A DNA stretch of 64,000 nucleotides from Planctomycetota bacterium (GCA_038227875.1 JBBRPR010000027.1:41153-105152), one strand, 5' to 3'. Shown: positions 2,339 to 63,757, counted from the stretch's first letter. Translations and numbers: made by a program. The notes: generated by a model not told the origin, from the letters alone.

Positions 2339-2572
2339 ATGCTCTGGAGTTACGCATTCCCACGGCTCACGCCGTGGGCTACTTTATTTCGCCACTCCGT
2401 GGCAAATGATGGATTGTTTTCTCGGAGTTAATCGCGATTCCACTGCGATCGCACTGGCAAGGCCGGAGTTTCGCTTCGCTCAAATCCATCCGTGCCAGTG
2501 GTACCAGGATCTCTCGGTAAAGCGGTGACTCTCCGCTCCCAAGAGCCACGAGCTAACAGCCAAGAGCCGCCG

Positions 2573-4084
2573 CTACGCACCGACCATTGCGCGGCCTACC
2601 GCTTCCTTTGCCACGCCGCGGGGGCCGACTTCTTTGATCTTGCCGCGGTAGAGGACGCTGACGCGGTCAGAAAGCAGGAGGATTTCGTCGAGGTCGGAGG
2701 AGATCAGTAACACGCCGGCTTGCTGTTCGCGCGCGGCGGTGAGCAGACGCTGATGCACGTCGCCGGTGGCCCCGACGTCCAGGCCGCGCGTCGGATTGCA
2801 GGCGACGATCAGCGCGGGGGCGCAGGAGAGTTCGCGGGCGATCACGACTTTCTGCTGGTTGCCGCCGCTGAGTGAACGCGCGGGAAGATCGGGCTCCGGC
2901 GGGACGGCGCCGTAGTCGCGGAGCAGCTCGGCACCGCGCGAGGTCATCGCGGCGTGATCGAGAATCGCGACGCTGGCAAAGTTGCGCGTCAGTTGCTTGC
3001 GCGCGAACAGATTTTCGCTCAGCGAAAAATCGAGCACCAGGCCCTCGTGATGGCGGTCGGACGGAATGTACGCCAGCCCCGCGTCGCTGCGCGATTTTAC
3101 GGAGAGCGCGGCCAGCGGTTGGCTGCGCATGTCGATCGCGGCACTGGAGTCAAGTGGGTGAGGAAGCGTGCCGGCGATCGCGGCGGCGAGTTCCTCCTGG
3201 CCGTTGCCTTCGACGCCGGCGATGCCCAGAATCTCTCCGGGGCGGATTTCGAGCTGATCGATGTCGAGTACCCCAGGAAGGCGCAGGTTGCGGACGGAGA
3301 GCACCGGTGCCGTGTTCGGCGAGACGGATTGCGTGGCGACTGGCGTGGTCGGCAGCGCGCGTCCGATCATCTTTTCAGCGAGGGTCGCGGGCGTCAGGTC
3401 GCTGAGCATGCCGGAGAAAACCGTCTTTCCCCGGCGCAGCACGGTCGTGGCGCTGGCCAGCGCGAAGACTTCGTCGAGCTTGTGGGTGACGACGACGATG
3501 GTGCGGCCGGCGGCGCGCAGACCGCGGAGCGTTTCAAAAAGCGTCGCCACTTCCGGCGGAGCGAGCACGGCGGTCGGTTCGTCGAGGAGCAGAATTTTGG
3601 CACCGCGGCCGAGCGCCTTTAAGATCTCGACGCGCTGCCGCAGGCCGACGGGCAGGTCGGCGACGCGCGCGGCCGGATCGATCGCCAGGCCCGTCTGCTG
3701 CGCGAGCTCGGCGACGTGCTTTTCCGCGGTGCGCCGGTCGAAGCGCAGACCCAGCGGACTGGCGCGGATGCCCAGCGCCACGTTCTCGGCGACGGTGAGC
3801 GCATCGGCGAGGAGGAAATGTTGATGAACCACACCGATGCCGGCGGCGACGGCATCCAGCGGCGAGGAGAAATTCGCGGTCGTGCCGAAGACGCTGCAGG
3901 TGCCGGCGTCGGGCTGGAGCAATCCCGAGACGATGCCCAGCAGCGTCGACTTTCCGGCTCCGTTCTCGCCGACGAGCGCGTGAATCTGCGCGACTTCGAC
4001 GCGCAAACTGGCGTCGTCGAGCGCCGTGTTGCTGCCGAAGCGCTTGGTGATGCCGGTGCAGACGAGTGCGGGCGCGTCGCTCAT
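2573..4084 (-). CDS. ABC transporter ATP-binding protein with two fused ATPase domains (sugar-importer RbsA/MglA/XylG type)
   Basis: 503 aa. The first domain carries Walker A GENGAGKST, and an LSGGNQQKVVIARELS signature follows the second ATPase domain. The start ATG overlaps the rhomboid stop (ATGA at 4081-4084). Confidence 0.85.
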   Translation of the reverse strand: MSDAPALVCTGITKRFGSNTALDDASLRVEVAQIHALVGENGAGKSTLLGIVSGLLQPDAGTCSVFGTTANFSSPLDAVAAGIGVVHQHFLLADALTVAENVALGIRASPLGLRFDRRTAEKHVAELAQQTGLAIDPAARVADLPVGLRQRVEILKALGRGAKILLLDEPTAVLAPPEVATLFETLRGLRAAGRTIVVVTHKLDEVFALASATTVLRRGKTVFSGMLSDLTPATLAEKMIGRALPTTPVATQSVSPNTAPVLSVRNLRLPGVLDIDQLEIRPGEILGIAGVEGNGQEELAAAIAGTLPHPLDSSAAIDMRSQPLAALSVKSRSDAGLAYIPSDRHHEGLVLDFSLSENLFARKQLTRNFASVAILDHAAMTSRGAELLRDYGAVPPEPDLPARSLSGGNQQKVVIARELSCAPALIVACNPTRGLDVGATGDVHQRLLTAAREQQAGVLLISSDLDEILLLSDRVSVLYRGKIKEVGPRGVAKEAVGRAMVGA

Positions 4085-5794: not shown

Positions 5795-7114
5795 CTATTT
5801 GCGTCCGAAGACGAACACTTCCATGTGGCGCAGCGATTTGACCGCGAGATCGGCGAGATTGGCCAGGCCGATGGCGCTGAGTTCTCCCTTGTCCAGCGCG
5901 GCCGCGTTGTCCTTGTACGCGAAGGCGATGTCGACCCACGGCGCGCCGGTCTGCCTGCTGGCCGTCGCGGCGGCGGAATAGAGTCGATCGAGATTGGTGC
6001 GGTCCTTGGCGATGGAGGTCATTCCCGGCGGCGCGTTGCAGACGATCGGAATCACGCCGCTTTCCAGGGCGCGCTCCTGGATCACGCGGATCGTTTCGCT
6101 GCCCGGCGTGACTCCGTCGGCGACATCCGAATGGCCCAGCACCAGCAGCGCCATTTCCGCTTCGCTTTTTTGAAGATTATACTGGAGCAGCGTGTGCATG
6201 TCCTCCAGACCGGTGACGGGCGAACCGTCGGGAGCTTCGGCGAAGACAAAGCGGAATTCGGATTTGGCTTTCGTCTGCGCGGCGGTGAGCGCAGCTTTCA
6301 GCGGCTCGACGTCTTCCGTGCGCGACGCGAGCACCAGCACGGTCTTGGCCTTGCGCTTGCCGCGGGGAGACTTGATGGCGTTCTGCAGCGCTTCCTGTCC
6401 AATGTAGTTGAACGAATATCCATCGCGTGGGGCCATGCGGAAGACTTCGCTGCGCTTGTTTTCCACGGCCAGCAGGCGCGGCAGGACTTCGGGCGGCCGG
6501 AGGCCGTTAATGATCACAAATTCGTCGATGTAGACGGCAGTCTGCTTCGGTGTGTTCGGTTTAAACGCCACGCGGATCTGATTCAGAACTCCGGTTTCCC
6601 TCATGATCTGATGGCCGTTGTACAGTTCGGCGAGATCCATGCTGATCGTCGTCCACGTCTGCGCTTTGCCGACGGAAGTAGTCTCCGAAAACCAGCCCTT
6701 GTCGTCGCCCATGCTGGTGACGACTTTTCCGGTGGCCTCGGCCCAGATCATGAACTGCAGTTTCACGTCCGACGGGCGCAGCCCGCCCATTAGATGGAAC
6801 GGACCCAGGCCGGAGATGTTGGCTTCGCCGCGGGTGCTCTGTTCTTTTTCTTCGAAGGCGGCGAGCTTGAGGGCGTGCGAGCCGGGTGTCTGCACGACTT
6901 TGTCCTGAATCGTGCCGATGTTCCAGATGCCCGGGCCTTCGCCTTCGAAGGATTCAAAATAAAGGACCTCGGGTATTTCCTTGTACGGGCGCCACGGTTT
7001 GGGCGGATCCTTTTTCACAGGCGGATCGTCGGGCGGCGGTGTCGCTCCGAAGACAGATAAGGGGAGCGCGGTCAGCGCCAGGAGAATCGCGGCGAGCAGG
7101 CGGCGCGGCATCAT
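5795..7114 (-). CDS. Secreted protein with an N-terminal beta-sandwich (CBM-like) and a C-terminal SGNH-hydrolase-like domain
   Basis: 439 aa with a signal peptide MMPRRLLAAILLALTALPLSVFG and a LVLGHSDVADG block. It is a paralog of the upstream gene in the same arrangement. Confidence 0.5.
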   Translation of the reverse strand: MMPRRLLAAILLALTALPLSVFGATPPPDDPPVKKDPPKPWRPYKEIPEVLYFESFEGEGPGIWNIGTIQDKVVQTPGSHALKLAAFEEKEQSTRGEANISGLGPFHLMGGLRPSDVKLQFMIWAEATGKVVTSMGDDKGWFSETTSVGKAQTWTTISMDLAELYNGHQIMRETGVLNQIRVAFKPNTPKQTAVYIDEFVIINGLRPPEVLPRLLAVENKRSEVFRMAPRDGYSFNYIGQEALQNAIKSPRGKRKAKTVLVLASRTEDVEPLKAALTAAQTKAKSEFRFVFAEAPDGSPVTGLEDMHTLLQYNLQKSEAEMALLVLGHSDVADGVTPGSETIRVIQERALESGVIPIVCNAPPGMTSIAKDRTNLDRLYSAAATASRQTGAPWVDIAFAYKDNAAALDKGELSAIGLANLADLAVKSLRHMEVFVFGRK

Positions 7115-8319: not shown

Positions 8320-8468
8320 GTAGTCCGGGCGTCTGACGTCTTCGTTGGAAAGTTCAGGTGGATTGCGAAGCAATAATGAAGCGTGCTTTCGCGCAAAAGC
8401 GAGACTTTCGAAAGGATGTCGCTTCGTCGCAAAGGCTGCAGTTAGACCGGGCGAGACACCCGGACTAC
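8320..8468. repeat. Pair of inverted copies of a 25-nt hairpin repeat (GTAGTCCGGGCGTCT[CGCCCGGTCT]) in the divergent leader between the 7111..8271 gene and hss
   Basis: A partial copy lies at 8320-8340 on the plus strand and a full copy at 8444-8468 on the minus strand. The same 25-mer recurs at 63645-63669. Confidence 0.75.
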
Positions 8469-8647
8469 AAAAAAACTTGCGTTCCTATTTTAATTTTGTG
8501 TCTACTACCTTGACAATGCCGCACAAATAACGTTATTGAAGAATCTTCAAAACGCATGCGCAGCGAACTCACTTTTCCGCGGGCAAAATTGCCGGCGCAG
8601 GCGCGTGTTTGAAGGGTCCGGGAAGTACGGAGGCTTGAGAAAAACCG

Positions 8648-15608: not shown

Positions 15609-15644
15609 TTCTAACCACATGGCCAATTGGCCATGTGGTTAGAA
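15609..15644. terminator. 36-nt perfect palindrome (TTCTAACCACATGGCCAA|TTGGCCATGTGGTTAGAA) between the convergent ruvC and 15686..15979 genes
   Basis: Verified base by base. It could form an 18-bp hairpin (a bidirectional terminator) or a dimeric protein-binding site. Confidence 0.5.
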
Positions 15645-19588: not shown

Positions 19589-19680
19589 AACAGCTCGTTC
19601 ATAAGCCCCTCGGCAAACGCCTCTACAGCCAGGCGTTTCACGGAGAACATTGGCAGAATGAAACTTTCCCCCGAGCTGTT
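19589..19680. other. Copy 1 of a structured sequence motif: outer stem AACAGCTCG/CGAGCTGTT enclosing inner hairpin AAACGCCT-CTACAGCC-AGGCGTTT plus conserved CACGG(A/T)GAA
   Basis: It lies in the divergent intergenic region between the lectin-like gene (start 19410, minus strand) and fmt (start 19790). See copy 2 at 38003..38088. Confidence 0.45.
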
Positions 19681-38002: not shown

Positions 38003-38088
38003 CAGCAGCCCGTTGATTAACCCTTGGCCTACGCCGCGAAACGCCTTTACTGCCAGGCGTTTCACGGTGAAATCTAACGGGCTGCTAG
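38003..38088. other. Copy 2 of the structured motif: outer stem CAGCAGCCCGTT/AACGGGCTGCTA enclosing AAACGCCT-TTACTGCC-AGGCGTTT plus CACGGTGAA
   Basis: It overlaps the stop codon of the flotillin gene and lies upstream of the 37528..37794 gene. The outer stem differs from copy 1 by compensatory changes. Confidence 0.45.
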
Positions 38089-40358: not shown

Positions 40359-41088
40359 AGAACCCTCCCTTCGAGAAAGTCCGTGCGTTCTTGCGTGACT
40401 ACGCAGTTGGACTATGGCCTGATGGCTACAGTCCAAGTATATCACGCTGCGGCGGACTTTGGTTTTTGTGGGTAAAGTTGGACGGGCAGAGATGCCCGGC
40501 ATGCGGCGAGGAGGAGGAGCCGTATGCCGGACGATCTCTACTCCGCCAGATTGGCAATACGCGGACGACCTGGGCTGGGAGTCCCGAGTCGGCCAGTGCC
40601 GCGCCGCGAGGTGTGTGCCCGCGACGCGGAGTTTGCGCACTGCCACAGCCGGCTCAGAAGCTTTTGGTGGTTGCAATCCTGAGAATGCCGAAGGCATCTC
40701 TTGATTGGGGGCTTGATTTGAACAGGATGGAGCCCACATCACAGGCGGAGCGCCTGTGCCACAGAAGCCTCTGAGGATTAAAAGTGGGCGCGAACGTTTG
40801 TTGCGACGCCCTGAACAAGCCTACGAGGTTAGCTGACGGGTTAGGGACTTCAGGTACCCTTCCTGCTTAAAACCGCAGGATACACCCCAACTGATTGGTT
40901 CCCCCGTTTCAGCCCTACGAGGACTGAACTCGGCGCTGTTGTGTTACGTCCGTAAGAAACCACGATTCCGATCTAATGTCAATATAATAGTAGGGGCTTG
41001 TTTGTAATCGCTGTGCACGTGTGGTGTAGCGCGACGGGACTTCGGATAATCCTTGCTGATTGTCACACAGGAATTATCGTCGACATCC

Positions 41089-43420: not shown

Positions 43421-43450
43421 GCGATGGCGCCTTTGCAAGAAACGGGAAGA

Positions 43451-43594
43451 TTGCGGATTGCGGATTGCGGATTGCGGATTGGACGGCAAAGCTCGCATTG
43501 AGAACCATACACAGTGCTCCGAAATTTCTTGCACGCTCTTCTGTCTTGAAGCTACCGCATTCTAATCCGCAATCCGCAATCCGAAATCCGCAAT
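43451..43594. repeat. Inverted tandem heptamer arrays: (TTGCGGA)x4 at 43451-43480 and (AATCCGC/AATCCGA)x4 at 43564-43594, separated by 83 nt
   Basis: Read directly from the sequence. The arms can pair as a roughly 30-bp stem. They fill the intergenic gap between the GcvH-like and DGC genes. Confidence 0.85.
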
Positions 43595-47992: not shown

Positions 47993-48435
47993 TGGACGAC
48001 GCCGCATAATGGTAGGAAGCCCCGCACTGGAACCCGCACGCGTGACTGAAACTGGCTCGAATTAAGATAACGCCCTTCGCACCGTGAGCAACACTTTCAT
48101 CGTGAAAAGATCATCAAAAAGTGAGTCGCCGATAAAAGCTATAAAATTAGCGGCAGGAACTATGCCGTAGATGCCCACGCCAACGATAACAGATGGGATC
48201 GGGGATCTGGCATCGGGCATCTGCTTTTTGGGAGGCACGTCCGTAATGCCCAATCGGAGAGAAATAACGTTGTAATACGGTGCGCCCACAAAATGACCGA
48301 TGCCAGATGCCCGATCCCCGATGCCATTAGTTGGCGTCGAGCCCGACCCCTTCACTAGAATCTTCCCCGCCATCCGCTATCTTTATCGTTTCCGTCGCGA
48401 CACGACGGCACAGACCATTTTCACTTGGAGAAGCC

Positions 48436-49677
48436 ATGGACGCTGCACTTCGTACGGCGCTGATTCGCGCCGCTGAAACCCAGGGGACGCCGGTTTACGT
48501 CTACGACAAAGCCACCATCGTCACGCGCTGCGAGTCGCTCAACGCCGCGATCACCTACCCCAAGAAGAAGCTGCTCTACGCGATGAAAGCCAACTCCAAC
48601 CAGGCCGTCGTCAAGACGATCCTCGGCACCGGATTCGGACTCGACTGCGTCAGCCTCGGCGAAGTGCAGTTCGGCTTGAAGCTCGGCGCCGATCGCGTGC
48701 TCTACACCAACAACAACGTCTCCGACGAAGAGTTCAACGCCGTCGTCAAGATTGGTAAAGAGACCGGCAAGATCTGGATCAACTGCGACAGCCTGCAGCG
48801 CCTCAACGACCTGCCCGAAGGCACCGCCTGCTTCGTCCGCATCAACGGCCCCGTCGGCGGCGGACATCACGACCATGTCATCACCTGCGGCCCGGAGAGC
48901 AAATTCGGCGTGCCGTGGGAACACGTCCCCGACGTCCTGAAGATCGTGACCGAACGCAAGCTCAAGCTGATCGGCGTCCACCAGCACATCGGCTCGGGCA
49001 TCCGCGAAGTCGAGAAATTCGCCGAAGCGATGGAAGTGCTCCTGAGCGTGCTGCGCAAGAACAAGCTCCCGGATCTGGAGTTCGTCGACTTCGGCGGCGG
49101 CATCGGCGTACCGTACCGGCCGACGGAAAAACCGATCGACCTGAAAGCCTTCGGCGCGATGCTCTCGACGCGCTTCACCCAGTTCTGCAAGGACGCCGGA
49201 AAAGAGCTGACCCTGGTGCTCGAACCCGGCCGCTTCCCGGTCGCCGAGAGCGGCTATCTCGTCGCCAAGGCCAACACGATCAAGGAGACGCCGTACAGCA
49301 AAACCTTCGCGGGCATCAACACCGGCTTCAACCATCTCGTCCGCCCGACGATGTACGGCAGCTACCATCACATCACGAACCTGAGCAACCCCGACGGTGC
49401 GCAGAAGCCCTATTACGTCGCCGGCAACATCTGCGAAAGCGGCGACATCTTCACGCGCGGCGACGGCGACGAAAACAGCGCCGCCTCGCGCACGCTCCCC
49501 GAAATCCGCCGCGGCGATTTCCTCGCCATCCACAACGCCGGCGCCTACGGCTACGCGATGGCCTCCGAATACAACATGCGCCCTCGCCCGGCCGAACTGC
49601 TGCTCGACAAGGGCGAACTGATCGTCGCCCGCAAAGCCAAGAGCGTGGAAGACGTGGTGCGGGAGTTCATGGGCTGA
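48436..49677 (+). CDS. lysA: PLP-dependent fold-III decarboxylase, best fit diaminopimelate decarboxylase
   Basis: Motifs TPVYVYD, AMKANSN (PLP lysine), GGGIGVPY, EPGR and GNICESGD. GGAG RBS before the ATG at 48436. The family also includes carboxynorspermidine decarboxylases, so the substrate is inferred. Confidence 0.7.
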   Translation: MDAALRTALIRAAETQGTPVYVYDKATIVTRCESLNAAITYPKKKLLYAMKANSNQAVVKTILGTGFGLDCVSLGEVQFGLKLGADRVLYTNNNVSDEEFNAVVKIGKETGKIWINCDSLQRLNDLPEGTACFVRINGPVGGGHHDHVITCGPESKFGVPWEHVPDVLKIVTERKLKLIGVHQHIGSGIREVEKFAEAMEVLLSVLRKNKLPDLEFVDFGGGIGVPYRPTEKPIDLKAFGAMLSTRFTQFCKDAGKELTLVLEPGRFPVAESGYLVAKANTIKETPYSKTFAGINTGFNHLVRPTMYGSYHHITNLSNPDGAQKPYYVAGNICESGDIFTRGDGDENSAASRTLPEIRRGDFLAIHNAGAYGYAMASEYNMRPRPAELLLDKGELIVARKAKSVEDVVREFMG

Positions 49678-49682
49678 GCGCG

Positions 49683-50232
49683 CTTAAGCGCGCTGACGCG
49701 CTGACGCGCGAGGGCCAGGGGTCAGGGCCAGGGGTCAGAGATGGGCGCGCGCAAGGGCACTTGAAGGAGAATCAGCGCGCGATGGTGGCCGCGCGGATGT
49801 TGCCGCACTTCGAAGAGGAAGCATTCCTGCGCAGGAATGTCAAAGGAGTGGTCAAAAGCCAACATGGGGACTGTAGTCCCCATCCTGACCACGGTCGAGC
49901 GAAGGACCACGCAGGAAGAGTCCTTAACATTTCCGGTAAGAGTGTGAGCTTTGCACGCAATCTCTTGGACCATGGCATCCCTGCTCGACCGAGGCGTGGT
50001 CGTCATCCGCAGCGACGACGCGGAAAAGTAGCGTGTCTCTATGAACGTTGAGTAAAGCAGACGACGGGTGGCCCGGCCTCTAAGGCCGGGTCGCTTGGCG
50101 ACAAGAGGCTCCAGGACAATCGTTGCGATCAATAGAGCGCAACGATTGTCCGCGAGTGCTTCGAAGTCGGATAACTTTTCGTGCGCGCCCCCACCTCTGG
50201 CCCTGACCCCTCGCGCGTCAGCGCGCCGCGCG
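49683..50232. repeat. About 550-bp intergenic element bounded by 30-nt terminal inverted repeats (CGCGCTGACGCGCGAGGG[G]TCAGGGCCAG...) and containing several perfect internal hairpins
   Basis: Left TIR at 49690-49740, with internal direct duplications. Right TIR at 50186-50230. Internal hairpins: GGGGACTGTAGTCCCC, CCCGGCCTCTAAGGCCGGG, CAATCGTTGCG...CGCAACGATTG. GC is lower than the flanks. Confidence 0.6.
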
Positions 50233-50234
50233 CG

Positions 50235-51335
50235 CTAGAGCTTCGTCTTCAGGTCCACGCGCCGTCCGGTCTTCGCGGACTCCAAACCGGCGAGCAGGAT
50301 CTCGGTGATGTGGCGGGCGGTGCGGGCGGTTTCGAAGCCGACGGGCGCGCCGGTGCGGATCGAGTTGATCCACTGCAGGTGCGGGTCGACGTAGGCGTGC
50401 TTCTTGCAGTCGATATCTTTGCGCTTGGCGGCGACGTCTTCGGATTTCTTGCTGGCTTGCTGGTAGAGCGAGATTTCGGCGCCCGCGTAGCCGGGGAATT
50501 CGGCGCGACCCAGCGTGCCGTGGACCATCAGGCGGCCGGAGCGCGCGCCGTCGCACCAGCCAGTTTCGGCTGAGGCGATCGCGCCGTTGGCGAACTGGAT
50601 GATCAGCGTCGCGGTGTCTTCCACCGCGCTGGGCTTGTCGAGAATCGCGGTCATGCCCATCACGGATTTGGCCGACCCGAGAATCGCGACGAGGCGCGCC
50701 ACGGCGTAGACGCCCATGTCGAAGAGCGCACCGACGGCGGCTTCGCCGGCTTCGAAGAACCAGAGTTTCTCGCCCGGCTTCAGCGGCGGTTCTTTCAGCA
50801 ACTGGCGGATGCCGGCGTAGTAAACTTCCGGGCCGCCGTGCGAGAAGCGGCAGTGCGCGCCGGAGATTTTGCCGAGCAGGCCTTCCGCGATCAGATCGCG
50901 CATGGTCAGAATCTGCGGAAACGTGAGCTGCGGCAGGCAGTAGACGACCTGCTTCGAGGCTTCCGCGGCCTTCACGAAGCGGTCGGCTTCGTCCATCGTC
51001 GGCGCCAGCGGCTTCTGCATGAAGACGTGCTTGCCGGCCTTGAGCGCCGCCAGTCCGAGGTCGACGTGATGCGGATGCGGCGTGGCGATCACGACCGCGT
51101 CGATCGACGGGTCTTCGATCACGGCGTTGTAATCGGTGAACGCCTTGCCGCCGTGGCGGTCGGTGAGCACTTTAAGCCGCGACATTTTGCGCCCGGCCAG
51201 CGCGGCGATCTTGACGCCTTTGATTTTTTCCAGCTGCGGCAGATGCATCTTCGCCGCGATGCCGCCGGCGCCGATGATGCCGATCGAAATGGGCTCGTCC
51301 AATTCCGCGGGGATCCGGCGTGACGCTTTGGCCAT
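50235..51335 (-). CDS. Gfo/Idh/MocA family NAD(P)-dependent oxidoreductase
   Basis: N-terminal Rossmann ISIGIIGAGGIAAKMHLPQL and the central EKPLA-type motif (FMQKPLAP). Confidence 0.8.
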   Translation of the reverse strand: MAKASRRIPAELDEPISIGIIGAGGIAAKMHLPQLEKIKGVKIAALAGRKMSRLKVLTDRHGGKAFTDYNAVIEDPSIDAVVIATPHPHHVDLGLAALKAGKHVFMQKPLAPTMDEADRFVKAAEASKQVVYCLPQLTFPQILTMRDLIAEGLLGKISGAHCRFSHGGPEVYYAGIRQLLKEPPLKPGEKLWFFEAGEAAVGALFDMGVYAVARLVAILGSAKSVMGMTAILDKPSAVEDTATLIIQFANGAIASAETGWCDGARSGRLMVHGTLGRAEFPGYAGAEISLYQQASKKSEDVAAKRKDIDCKKHAYVDPHLQWINSIRTGAPVGFETARTARHITEILLAGLESAKTGRRVDLKTKL

Positions 51336-61192: not shown

Positions 61193-61218
61193 GCGCGGTG
61201 ATGCGGAATGGGAACAGA

Positions 61219-61428
61219 ATTGCGGATTGCGGATTTCGGATTGCGGATTAGCGAAGGGGATCGGTCCGTTTTTGCGCGGGAGTCATTCGAGATCGGGAGC
61301 AACGGAGACGAATAAAAGAAAAGCGTGCGCGCTAAAATTCGTGGGTAGGATTTTGATCTCGGAATTCACCCCGCGTAACGGACCAGCAACCGTCGCTAAT
61401 CCGCAATCCGCAATCCGAAATCCGCAAT
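61219..61428. repeat. Second pair of inverted heptamer arrays: (TTGCGGA/TTTCGGA)x4 at 61219-61250 and (AATCCGC/AATCCGA)x4 at 61397-61428, separated by 146 nt
   Basis: The right array is identical, as a 32-mer, to the right array at 43563-43594. It lies between two convergent genes. Confidence 0.85.
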
Positions 61429-61432
61429 GCCG

Positions 61433-62137
61433 TTAGAGGTACCCGAGGTCTTCCAATCTCTTCTGAATTTCCTTTTCGTCTTCGACGCTGTAGCCGCTGG
61501 CGCGGTCGACGGTGGATTCCAGGCGTGCGCCTTTGAGCGTCGCGGGGGCTTCGACGTTGAGCCAGGCGAGGACCGTGGCGAGGACGTCTTCGATGGGGCG
61601 TTCTCCGCCGTCGCCGGACTTGAGGCCTTGGGTGTGGCAGAGCCACTTCGCGTCACTCATGCCGCAGAGCGTAATGACGGTGCCGACGTCGGTCGGTTGC
61701 GCGGCGAGGAACGTCGCGAGATCCTTGGCGAACATTTCGGCATCCGCGGGAAGCGGCAGGGAAATTCCGAGGAGATCCCACGGTTCTTCGGCGGACAATT
61801 TTTGCGCAACGGACAGCGGCGTGGGTAATGCTGCCAGCGTCGCGGCGACGCGCGCTTCACTGCTGGGCTGCAGGCAGCGCCATTTTCCGTTCTCAGTGAA
61901 CACCGCCAGGGCGCGCGAACGCACCGGCGCGGCGTCGCGCCAGTCGGTGCCGACGGTGACGCGCGACAAGCGCGCCGCGGCGACGGCCTGGATCCATTCG
62001 GCGCTGAACAATCTGCCGCGCGCACTCGCGCCGGCCAGCACCGTGCCGCTCAGGCTGTGAACGGAGAGCTGCTGCCACTGGGCCGTGAAGTCCGACGGCT
62101 CTCCGTGTACGACGACAAAGATGACGCGCTGCGGCAT
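61433..62137 (-). CDS. Hypothetical protein (234 aa)
   Basis: Starts immediately downstream of the sulfatase-like gene on the same strand. No motif recognised. Confidence 0.4.
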   Translation of the reverse strand: MPQRVIFVVVHGEPSDFTAQWQQLSVHSLSGTVLAGASARGRLFSAEWIQAVAAARLSRVTVGTDWRDAAPVRSRALAVFTENGKWRCLQPSSEARVAATLAALPTPLSVAQKLSAEEPWDLLGISLPLPADAEMFAKDLATFLAAQPTDVGTVITLCGMSDAKWLCHTQGLKSGDGGERPIEDVLATVLAWLNVEAPATLKGARLESTVDRASGYSVEDEKEIQKRLEDLGYL

Positions 62138-63631: not shown

Positions 63632-63644
63632 GGCGCTCCGTTTC

Positions 63645-63757
63645 GTAGTCCGGGCGTCTCGCCCGGTCTTCTTGAAAATTCACATGTTCCGTCCCCGACG
63701 ACGCGACTCTTGCAACGACGCGTCTGTCCGACGCAGACCGGGCGAGACGACTGGTCT
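63645..63757. repeat. Second pair of the GTAGTCCGGGCGTCTCGCCCGGTCT repeat, immediately upstream of the sulfatase-like gene start
   Basis: Full copy at 63645-63669 on the plus strand and a partial inverted copy at 63735-63757, followed by TTTTT. On the minus strand the motif ends 14 nt before the ATG. Confidence 0.75.

Follow-up and report, generated by a model that had tools for sequence, protein, structure and literature searches.

The spacer between the convergent genes for diaminopimelate decarboxylase (lysA) and an oxidoreductase in this member of the Planctomycetota is a real yet ordinary feature, namely the scar of a pseudogene flanked by palindromes. Most probably, although with considerable room for doubt, it is a composite and non-mobile scar, in which the relic of a ParB-like gene, the palindrome of the corresponding family, a hairpin module of the lysA flank and a local inverted repeat have come together. 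The core of the spacer is a recently inactivated pseudogene fragment of a ParB-like gene of the type found in phages, plasmids and genomic islands. The window, i.e. the whole stretch of DNA that was analysed, comprises 64,000 nucleotides, and all positions are counted from its first letter unless another sequence is named.

The left flanking gene, lysA (48436-49677, plus strand; Pfam Orn_Arg_deC_N and Orn_DAP_Arg_deC), probably has its true start at the ATG at 48436. Its C-terminus is intact (..VVREFMG and stop, as in relatives), and an identical LysA product of 413 amino acids is found on record. To the right lies the gene for a protein assigned by Pfam to the GFO/IDH/MocA-family of oxidoreductases (50235-51335, minus strand), and the identical product is encoded on a Logan contig of the same strain. 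The spacer between the two convergent stop codons covers positions 49678-50234, with a GC content of 0.555-0.585 compared to 0.64-0.71 in the flanks. The surroundings of the locus (Tex, LysR, TPR protein and GH44 genes) are of the housekeeping type, and no recombinase was found among the neighbouring genes that were checked. Elsewhere in the window Rfam 15 recognises a c-di-AMP riboswitch and an Acido-Lenti-1 RNA. An earlier note on this DNA, made from the sequence alone, had described a hairpin-rich, low-GC spacer of about 550 bp between convergent lysA-like and oxidoreductase genes, and all of these features were recovered at this position. The end of the segment at the oxidoreductase stop agrees with a terminal hairpin overlapping that stop codon; its start, however, had been placed 6 nt past the lysA stop, whereas the structure actually begins at the last base of this stop codon.

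The origin of the interior was revealed by comparison with protein sequences. Positions 49746-50048, translated in the frame of the ATG at 49782, were used as query for phmmer against 1.84 billion representative proteins. This search yielded 88 proteins (best E = 2e-16), all matched only at residues ~100-175 of proteins of ~300 amino acids. The closest protein, P0212 (332 aa), shows 79% identity in tblastn over its residues 96-193 (98 aa), and from the motif HLKENQ onward the identity to the relic amounts to ~92% over 76 aa. Protein similarity seemed to reach back as far as 49662, within the end of lysA, but this is spurious, since the C-terminus of LysA is not only intact but also typical. 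Two segments of the relic can be distinguished on the plus strand. Segment A (49758-49985) codes for HLKENQRAMVAARMLPHFEEEA...GRVLNISGKSVSFARNLLDHGIPA, equivalent to residues ~118-193 of P0212, which comprise the linker and the helix-turn-helix, and has 84% nucleotide identity over 190 nt to the homologous locus L011. Segment B (49981-50031) is read in another frame and encodes LLDRGVVVIRSDDAEK plus a stop, the C-terminal end of the family; in blastn its element positions 304-342 match positions 6892-6930 of a second homologous locus, L136 (90%), and in tblastn it matches residues 298-310 of the protein P0125 (92%).

Members of this ParB-like family are built from an N-terminal ParB-type domain (..VIDGRHRL.AC..), a block LKENQRAMVAARMLPHFEEEA, a variable linker, a helix-turn-helix (..LNISGKSV..AR.LL..GIP) and a C-terminal motif (..LLDRGV.V.R..), in this order. 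According to the alignment the N-terminal DGRHR domain is missing from the window, and the C-terminal motif LLDRGV..IRSDD is present in a frame other than that of segment A. Nucleotide matches place the two segments ~350 nt apart in the intact L136 gene, and their junction in the spacer marks an internal deletion of ~350 nt, located at a short microhomology. Of the protein, residues ~118-193 and the ~16 C-terminal residues are all that is retained, in two frames. Because significant similarity to the family is combined with truncation, deletion and a change of frame, the core of the spacer has to be regarded as a pseudogene fragment. The dN/dS ratio between the relic and the corresponding part of the intact gene in L011 is 0.23, which points to a functional ancestor and to no great age of the relic. 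The earlier idea that foreign DNA is wedged between the two genes was therefore right in substance, as positions 49758-50031 represent a ParB-like fragment of the mobile-element type.

PHROGs assign the family to phrog_21315 and phrog_4715 ('ParB-like partition protein'). Relatives are frequent on IMG/VR contigs, plasmids and some phages, and fusions to MT-A70 methyltransferases are common among them. In L136, none of the genes neighbouring the intact homologue matched PHROGs, and a prophage context was not seen there. A word-index protein search with the translation of arm plus relic returned nothing. When the internal ORFs of the spacer on both strands were compared with Pfam and PHROGs, they were assigned to no family and showed no similarity to transposases; an ORF of 136 aa on the minus strand is probably spurious. 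A further ORF of 89 aa extends from the ATG at 49782, just preceded by GAAGGAG, to the stop at 50051, and its tail after GIP is frameshifted and arginine-rich. The relic is probably inert at present. It resembles other remnants of prophages and mobile genes ('grounded prophage') in being a truncated, deleted and frameshifted fragment in a housekeeping context and at a synteny breakpoint. In contrast to these, only ~275 nt are left, there are no att sites and no integrase, and a long inverted repeat surrounds the fragment, an arrangement untypical of prophage scars.

At least three perfect hairpins had been reported for the spacer, and this was confirmed. An 18-nt perfect palindrome CATTCCTGCGCAGGAATG (49822-49839) is located within the coding sequence of the relic and codes for AFLRRN as in P0212. 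The hairpin ATGGGGACT-GT-AGTCCCCAT (49864-49883) also belongs to the relic and occupies the position of the linker palindrome of the family. The perfect hairpin GGCCCGGCC..GGCCGGG is found at 50070-50090, and another one at 50109-50156 has perfect stems of 14 bp (50114-50127 / 50138-50151), its left arm being the tail of the hairpin module described below.

The hairpin at 49864-49883 is an inherited intragenic palindrome of the ParB-like family, situated in the linker before the helix-turn-helix. At the same position L011 has GGGACAATTGTCCC and L136 has GTAAATTTAC. The linker DNA of the family contains a perfect palindrome with a stem of at least 6 in 26 of 32 distinct loci and of at least 7 in 20 of 32, whereas control stretches of the same length just upstream and just downstream of the linker contain a stem of at least 7 in only 2/30 and 1/30 cases, respectively. 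These palindromes are centred on AAATTT or CAATTG and are read in three different frames (..ANL.., ..QICA.., ..PIG..), so that the DNA palindrome and not the peptide is the conserved entity. By analogy with parS and bisS, the linker palindrome is a candidate for the cognate binding site of the ParB-like protein, with ATGGGGACTGTAGTCCCCAT as the putative site in the spacer; literature on GCAAATTTGC was found only in the form of DNA-biophysics papers. A parS site is located inside spo0J of Bacillus subtilis. The ParB-like clamp BisD on ICEclc is loaded at intragenic palindromic sites, the bisS sites (bioRxiv 10.1101/2024.09.16.613209). In the ParB-like family a perfect palindrome likewise lies within coding DNA, here inside the ParB-like gene itself. 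However, the cores AAATTT and CAATTG are unlike both parS and bisS, and the copy in the window is a diverged palindrome inside a pseudogene.

A hairpin module of 58 nt, GGGTGGCCCGGCC-loop-GGCCGGGTCGC-NNN-GCGACAAGAGGCTSC (50064-50121, plus strand), connects the spacer with L005, a relative whose LysA is 83% identical and which, among the sequences compared, is the sole other carrier of the module; there it is located in the lysA 3' flank. In L005 two inverted copies of the module bound an element of 250 bp starting 9 nt after the lysA stop. The module directly follows the stop in L005, and the distance is 387 nt in the window. With a covariance model of the module, 73 bits are reached in the window, compared to 82-87 bits in L005. 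Searching 143 kb of this and related genomes with this model gave no further copies, so that the module does not look like a dispersed repeat but like a part of the lysA 3' flank. Its stems are invariant between the two genomes and its loops vary, so that there is no covariation. The earlier note had held that the absence of other copies, together with the same sequence at the syntenic site of relatives, would point to an ancestral spacer; one module of the spacer was indeed found at the lysA 3' flank of L005.

Beyond this module, the genes adjoining lysA differ in every relative examined, and in the closest relative, P0001 (90% LysA identity), a different gene follows 64 nt after lysA. This identifies the 3' flank of lysA as a rearrangement breakpoint. 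Inverted repeats with arms built from short tandem units are not restricted to the spacer. In the window, repeats with (ATTGCGG)x4 arms are located at 43450-43594 and 61213-61434, which share one arm with 33/33 identical nt and have different centres, and an inverted repeat of GGGATCG/GGCATCT units lies upstream of lysA (48183-48337). At this same position upstream of lysA, L005 possesses an inverted repeat of GGGGTCA/GGGGCCA heptamers (L005 positions 1412-1510), which matches the left arm of the spacer in 22/23 nt and is found there with no ParB-like gene, and an ATTGCGG-type inverted repeat is present in L009. Taken together, palindromes with repeat-built arms and variable centres are recurrent in this clade.

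The inverted repeat enclosing the spacer is long and imperfect, with a left arm at 49688-49750 (gapped alignment) and a shorter right arm at 50183-50233. Aligning the left end with the reverse complement of the right end gives arms of ~50 nt with 49/51 matching pairs and 12 gap positions; the score is 53, compared to 16.8 +/- 2.9 with a maximum of 36 in 2000 shuffles. The longest exact stretch between the arms is the 18-mer CGCGCTGACGCGCGAGGG. Terminal inverted repeats of 30 nt differing by a single G had been proposed before. The repeat as such holds and is even longer, but the arms are actually distinguished by a 7-nt insertion and by extra repeat units. The direct duplications seen inside the left repeat proved correct, with CGCTGACG x2 at 49691-49706 and AGGGCCAGGGGTC x2 at 49711-49736; both are carried by the left arm and are missing from the right one. 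The contents of the arms, GGGCCA GGGGTCA x2 with a period of 13 nt, were not called as a heptamer array by the array script; the repeat consists of a 13-nt unit duplicated once, plus the 8-nt duplication.

At both ends the spacer carries a GC hairpin, AGCGCGC-TTAA-GCGCGCT on the left (49677-49694), overlapping the last base of the lysA stop codon, and AGCGCGC-CGC-GCGCGCT on the right (50220-50236), overlapping the oxidoreductase stop codon. The pattern AGCGCGC N2-6 GCGCGCT has two matches in 64 kb, one per spacer end, where 0.04 are expected. These identical AGCGCGC-loop-GCGCGCT hairpins are absent from the earlier description. A hairpin followed by a T-run, as in a terminator, was found neither after lysA nor after the oxidoreductase gene; two weak terminator-like sites are located on the minus strand inside the relic, a number not beyond chance, with 1.0 expected from shuffles.

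Inverted GC-rich hairpins at the 3' ends of genes are also typical for REP dimers and BIMEs, and for REP dimers it is known that DNA can be inserted between the partners and that the two can together form a single large stem-loop (Di Nocera et al. 2013, PMC3733652). As in CGTC-REPs, CGTC adjoins each terminal hairpin of the spacer (CGTC-AGCGCGC-loop-GCGCGCT). However, CGTC-REPs have a stem of 8-9 bp starting with two A-T pairs, a loop of 4-5 nt and a CCA-like tail, whereas here a single A-T pair closes a stem of 7 bp, the loops measure 4 and 3 nt, and CAG and AGA stand in place of the tail. Furthermore, the tags of the spacer face inward (TT type, rare for CGTC), and the spacing is ~520 nt instead of 20-100 nt. 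The terminal hairpins thus deviate from the definition of CGTC-tagged REPs in stem, loop and tail. CGTC-REPs reach tens to thousands of copies per genome; in the 64 kb of the window 2 units are present, both in the spacer. The cyanobacterial STRR (short tandemly repeated repetitive) sequences were reportedly first described by Mazel et al. in 1990. According to a passage in PMC2670836, such heptamer arrays can form hairpins. Inverted short tandem units are common to STRR and the repeats studied here, most clearly the (ATTGCGG)n, GGGATCG/GGCATCT and L005 repeats; phylum and units differ, and the arms of the spacer are 13-nt and 8-nt duplications and not clean heptamers.

How the arms and the interior came together can be explained in different ways. 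In the earlier note a MITE-like insertion was proposed; in such a foldback element the arms would be terminal inverted repeats for a transposase encoded elsewhere, and the interior would be passenger DNA. This now appears rather unlikely to us. The spacer does resemble MITEs in that it is ~550 bp long, non-coding overall, located between genes and bounded by a long terminal inverted repeat. In addition, the two ATTGCGG loci with their 33/33-nt arm and different interiors show that inverted-repeat elements with variable cargo exist in this genome, and the contig with the closest full-length ParB-like homologue also carries a Y1-transposase gene. On the other hand, no further copy of the arms was found within the 64-kb window, and in a collection of 185,579 species (one representative genome each), which does not include the source genome, the arms gave only two matches, both due to chance in unrelated high-GC coding DNA of Chloroflexia and Streptantibioticus. 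Neither the arm pattern nor the module pattern was matched in IMG/VR, and the phage and plasmid collections yielded nothing when searched by blastn with the spacer. Both arms are crossed without branching by Logan contigs of the identical strain (SRR19962015): L001 extends 151 nt into the spacer and ends in the module hairpin, and L002 extends 108 nt and ends in the most conserved ParB-like stretch (49785). This speaks weakly against multi-copy arms in the sample, as contigs also end because of coverage. A target-site duplication could not be read from the flanks of the arms, since these are GCGCGC-rich palindromes overlapping the stop codons, in which no direct repeat is distinguishable from background. 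With arms that are single-copy wherever searched and an interior derived from a ParB-like gene instead of an IS or transposase, the proposal of a MITE-like insertion is not supported. There is also some small chance that the arms are younger than the insertion and were formed when a template switch or foldback repair duplicated the 5' end of the relic in inverted orientation. The left arm (..LT..TRE[WD]GQGS..) would then consist of ParB-like codons that have decayed, and the right arm would be its partial inverted copy. In favour of this, tblastn to P0212 and P0215 reaches position 49704 with TRE-GQGS in frame, 11 codons before HLKENQ (13 in the family), and the family shows hardly any variation at T80, R81 and E82 and none at W83. 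As the right arm holds the junction of the 13-nt duplication (GGGGTCA followed by GGGCCAG), it would have been copied after this duplication. However, 150 of 5000 dinucleotide shuffles score equally, so that the match is weakly significant (p ~0.03), the 11 intervening codons are without similarity although the adjacent relic is ~92% identical to P0212, and the near-identical GGGGTCA/GGGGCCA array in L005 occurs without a ParB-like gene.

Two other explanations attribute a present function to the spacer. We doubt strongly that the relic is still functional, either as an orphan parS-like site (49864-49883) for a ParB-like clamp encoded elsewhere or as an 89-aa helix-turn-helix mini-protein. The palindrome of the family has been kept in position despite a sequence unlike those of L011 and L136, and intragenic palindromic loading sites have a precedent in bisS of BisD. 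The 89 open codons and the dN/dS of 0.23 versus L011 would also be in line with a function, and one Logan contig breaks at 49785, in the most conserved stretch, as it might if the sample contained a second homologous copy. However, a full-length ParB-like gene was not found in the 64-kb window, no promoter-like site, such as an invertible promoter segment (inverton) would also contain, was found in the spacer, and the centre GT of the palindrome is non-palindromic, whereas most family members are loop-free. Moreover, the frame of the ORF is disturbed past GIP, and a low dN/dS is expected already from the divergence before inactivation. A structured ncRNA was the second possibility raised in the earlier note, and for a large RNA of this kind or a 3'-UTR element closed by a long terminal stem we see hardly any room. 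The predicted fold is very stable compared to shuffles and comprises several internal hairpins closed by a stem of ~50 bp, and the module stems are conserved in two genomes with variable loops. However, the reverse strand folds equally well (z = -9.8 and -9.9 on the two strands), which argues for DNA palindromes rather than a strand-specific RNA, the invariant module stems give no covariation, the relatives lack the structure as a whole, and half of the spacer is recognisable as a pseudogene. At gathering thresholds no Rfam model (tmRNA, RNase P, SRP, OLE, GOLLD, ROOL, HEARO and others) matched the spacer, and even at E <= 10 no family could be assigned. The permissive matches below threshold are to models of eukaryotic miRNAs, lncRNAs, snoRNAs and conserved regions and to one bacterial sRNA model (BsrF), and the best of them reach 10-23 bits against eukaryotic miRNA/lncRNA models with cut-offs of 49-120 bits. 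Based on Rfam, the folding of both strands and the coding origin of half the spacer, the proposal of a structured RNA is not supported either. The exclusion of tmRNA, RNase P RNA and SRP RNA already made in the earlier note is in agreement with Rfam and with ARAGORN, which found no tRNA or tmRNA.

For the composite scar, which we prefer, the following scenario can be envisaged. DNA of a mobile element with a ParB-like gene would have been inserted or captured within or beside a palindromic 3'-end structure, the capture site being the synteny breakpoint at the lysA 3' flank, and would then have been reduced by deletion to ~275 nt. The enclosing inverted repeat would be a local, single-copy palindromic 3'-end structure of the same class as the three other repeats in the window. 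We infer this order of events and the existence of the arms before the capture from the arrangement found today. The present role of the spacer would be at most that of 3'-end hairpins, acting in termination or mRNA protection for both convergent genes. Some observations do not fit well to this scenario. The module adjoins the lysA stop in L005 but is 387 nt away from it here, and no canonical terminator follows either gene. The arms are a 13-nt unit duplicated once instead of clean heptamer arrays, and the left arm reads T-R-E-G-Q-G-S in the frame of the relic, which resembles TREWDGQGS of the family, so that this arm is possibly derived from the gene.

With a probability that we consider low, the spacer could instead belong to an undescribed class of intergenic inverted repeats with variable cargo in these Planctomycetota, and/or represent an orphan ParB loading site. 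If such a class is real, its arms would be arrays of short tandem units, which differ between genomes at one locus yet are complementary to each other, and the spacer would be one of these elements, with a captured piece of a ParB-like gene that includes the intragenic palindrome typical of the family. In that case it might still serve a ParB-like clamp as an orphan loading site or give rise to a mini-protein consisting only of the helix-turn-helix. As a composite scar, the spacer illustrates that an eroded piece of a mobile-element gene within local palindromes can account for DNA with the appearance of a MITE or a structured RNA, which calls for caution against over-annotation. Two by-products of the analysis possibly carry more weight than the spacer itself: inverted repeats with tandem-heptamer arms recur at intergenic sites of this clade of Planctomycetota, and most of the sampled members of the ParB-like family possess a perfect intragenic palindrome.

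Genes of the phage/plasmid-type ParB-like family hold a perfect palindrome, at most 26 nt long, in the DNA that encodes the variable linker before the helix-turn-helix. The linker-coding DNA considered is that of the family loci L012-L136 and, within the ParB-like relic of the lysA-oxidoreductase spacer, window 49864-49883. These palindromes are centred on AAATTT or CAATTG and occur in three different reading frames. A stem of at least 7 is present in 20 out of 32 distinct linker loci, compared with 2 out of 30 and 1 out of 30 in the controls. Examples of such linker-coding DNA are L016 4268-4426, L012 3047-3151 and L037 868-963. A literature search with the palindrome core GCAAATTTGC found no description of this palindrome. 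We regard the intragenic palindrome as a candidate for the cognate parS-like site of the family.

Two short-read contigs of the identical strain (L001 and L002, SRR19962015) both terminate within the spacer, the former at about window 50084 in the hairpin of the 58-nt module, and the latter at window 49785, where the ParB-like sequence is best conserved. A coverage gap could produce ends inside the spacer, too; the positions are compatible with further copies in the sample of the ParB-like stretch and the module, not of the arms of the long inverted repeat which encloses the spacer.

Tandem heptamer arrays form the arms of further intergenic inverted repeats in the window and in the lysA loci of two relatives (L005 and L009), with centres of 36-106 nt. 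Two of them, window 43450-43594 and 61213-61434, are built from (ATTGCGG)x4 and have one arm identical (33/33 nt). A third, upstream of lysA (window 48183-48337; GGGATCG/GGCATCT), has a counterpart at the orthologous site in L005 (1412-1510; GGGGTCA/GGGGCCA), and another lies at L009 8078-8190. Because the architecture upstream of lysA is equal in L005 and the window while the heptamers differ, the arm sequences diverge yet remain complementary. The heptamer-arm repeats resemble the cyanobacterial STRR repeats.

Other small elements are dispersed over the window. The repeat AGACCGGGCGAGACACCCGGACTACAAAA (8444-8472) has an inverted copy at 63641-63669 (93% complementary) and a more diverged one at 63735-63757, and AAACGCCTCTACAGCCAGGCGTTTCACGGAGAA is present in two copies of 91% identity (19615-19647 and 38039-38071). 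Both repeats are hairpin-forming and may represent 3'-end elements or small repeats. A 36-nt perfect palindrome with 18-nt arms and without spacer, TTCTAACCACATGGCCAA|TTGGCCATGTGGTTAGAA, is located at 15609-15644. Structured RNAs comprise a c-di-AMP (ydaO/yuaA) riboswitch (40802-40945, minus strand, 84.7 bits) and an Acido-Lenti-1 RNA (2359-2404, plus strand, 51.8 bits).

The module, single in the window (50064-50121), recurs in L005, a relative whose LysA is 83% identical, where two inverted copies form the ends of a 250-bp element (2878-3127) starting 9 nt 3' of lysA. Each copy is directed away from the neighbouring convergent gene, and the interior has no relation to the spacer of the window. 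Among the full-length ParB-like homologues that could be retrieved, the closest, P0121, is encoded on a contig from the same sample as the relative with 90% LysA identity; this contig also carries a Y1-transposase gene. LysA homologues assign the organism to the Planctomycetota. Comparing the lysA loci of L003/L004, L005, L008, L009/L010 and the contig of P0001 (the LysA of the 90% relative) reveals a different set of neighbouring genes on both sides in each relative, even in the one with 90% protein identity. In this clade, lysA therefore lies between rearrangement breakpoints.
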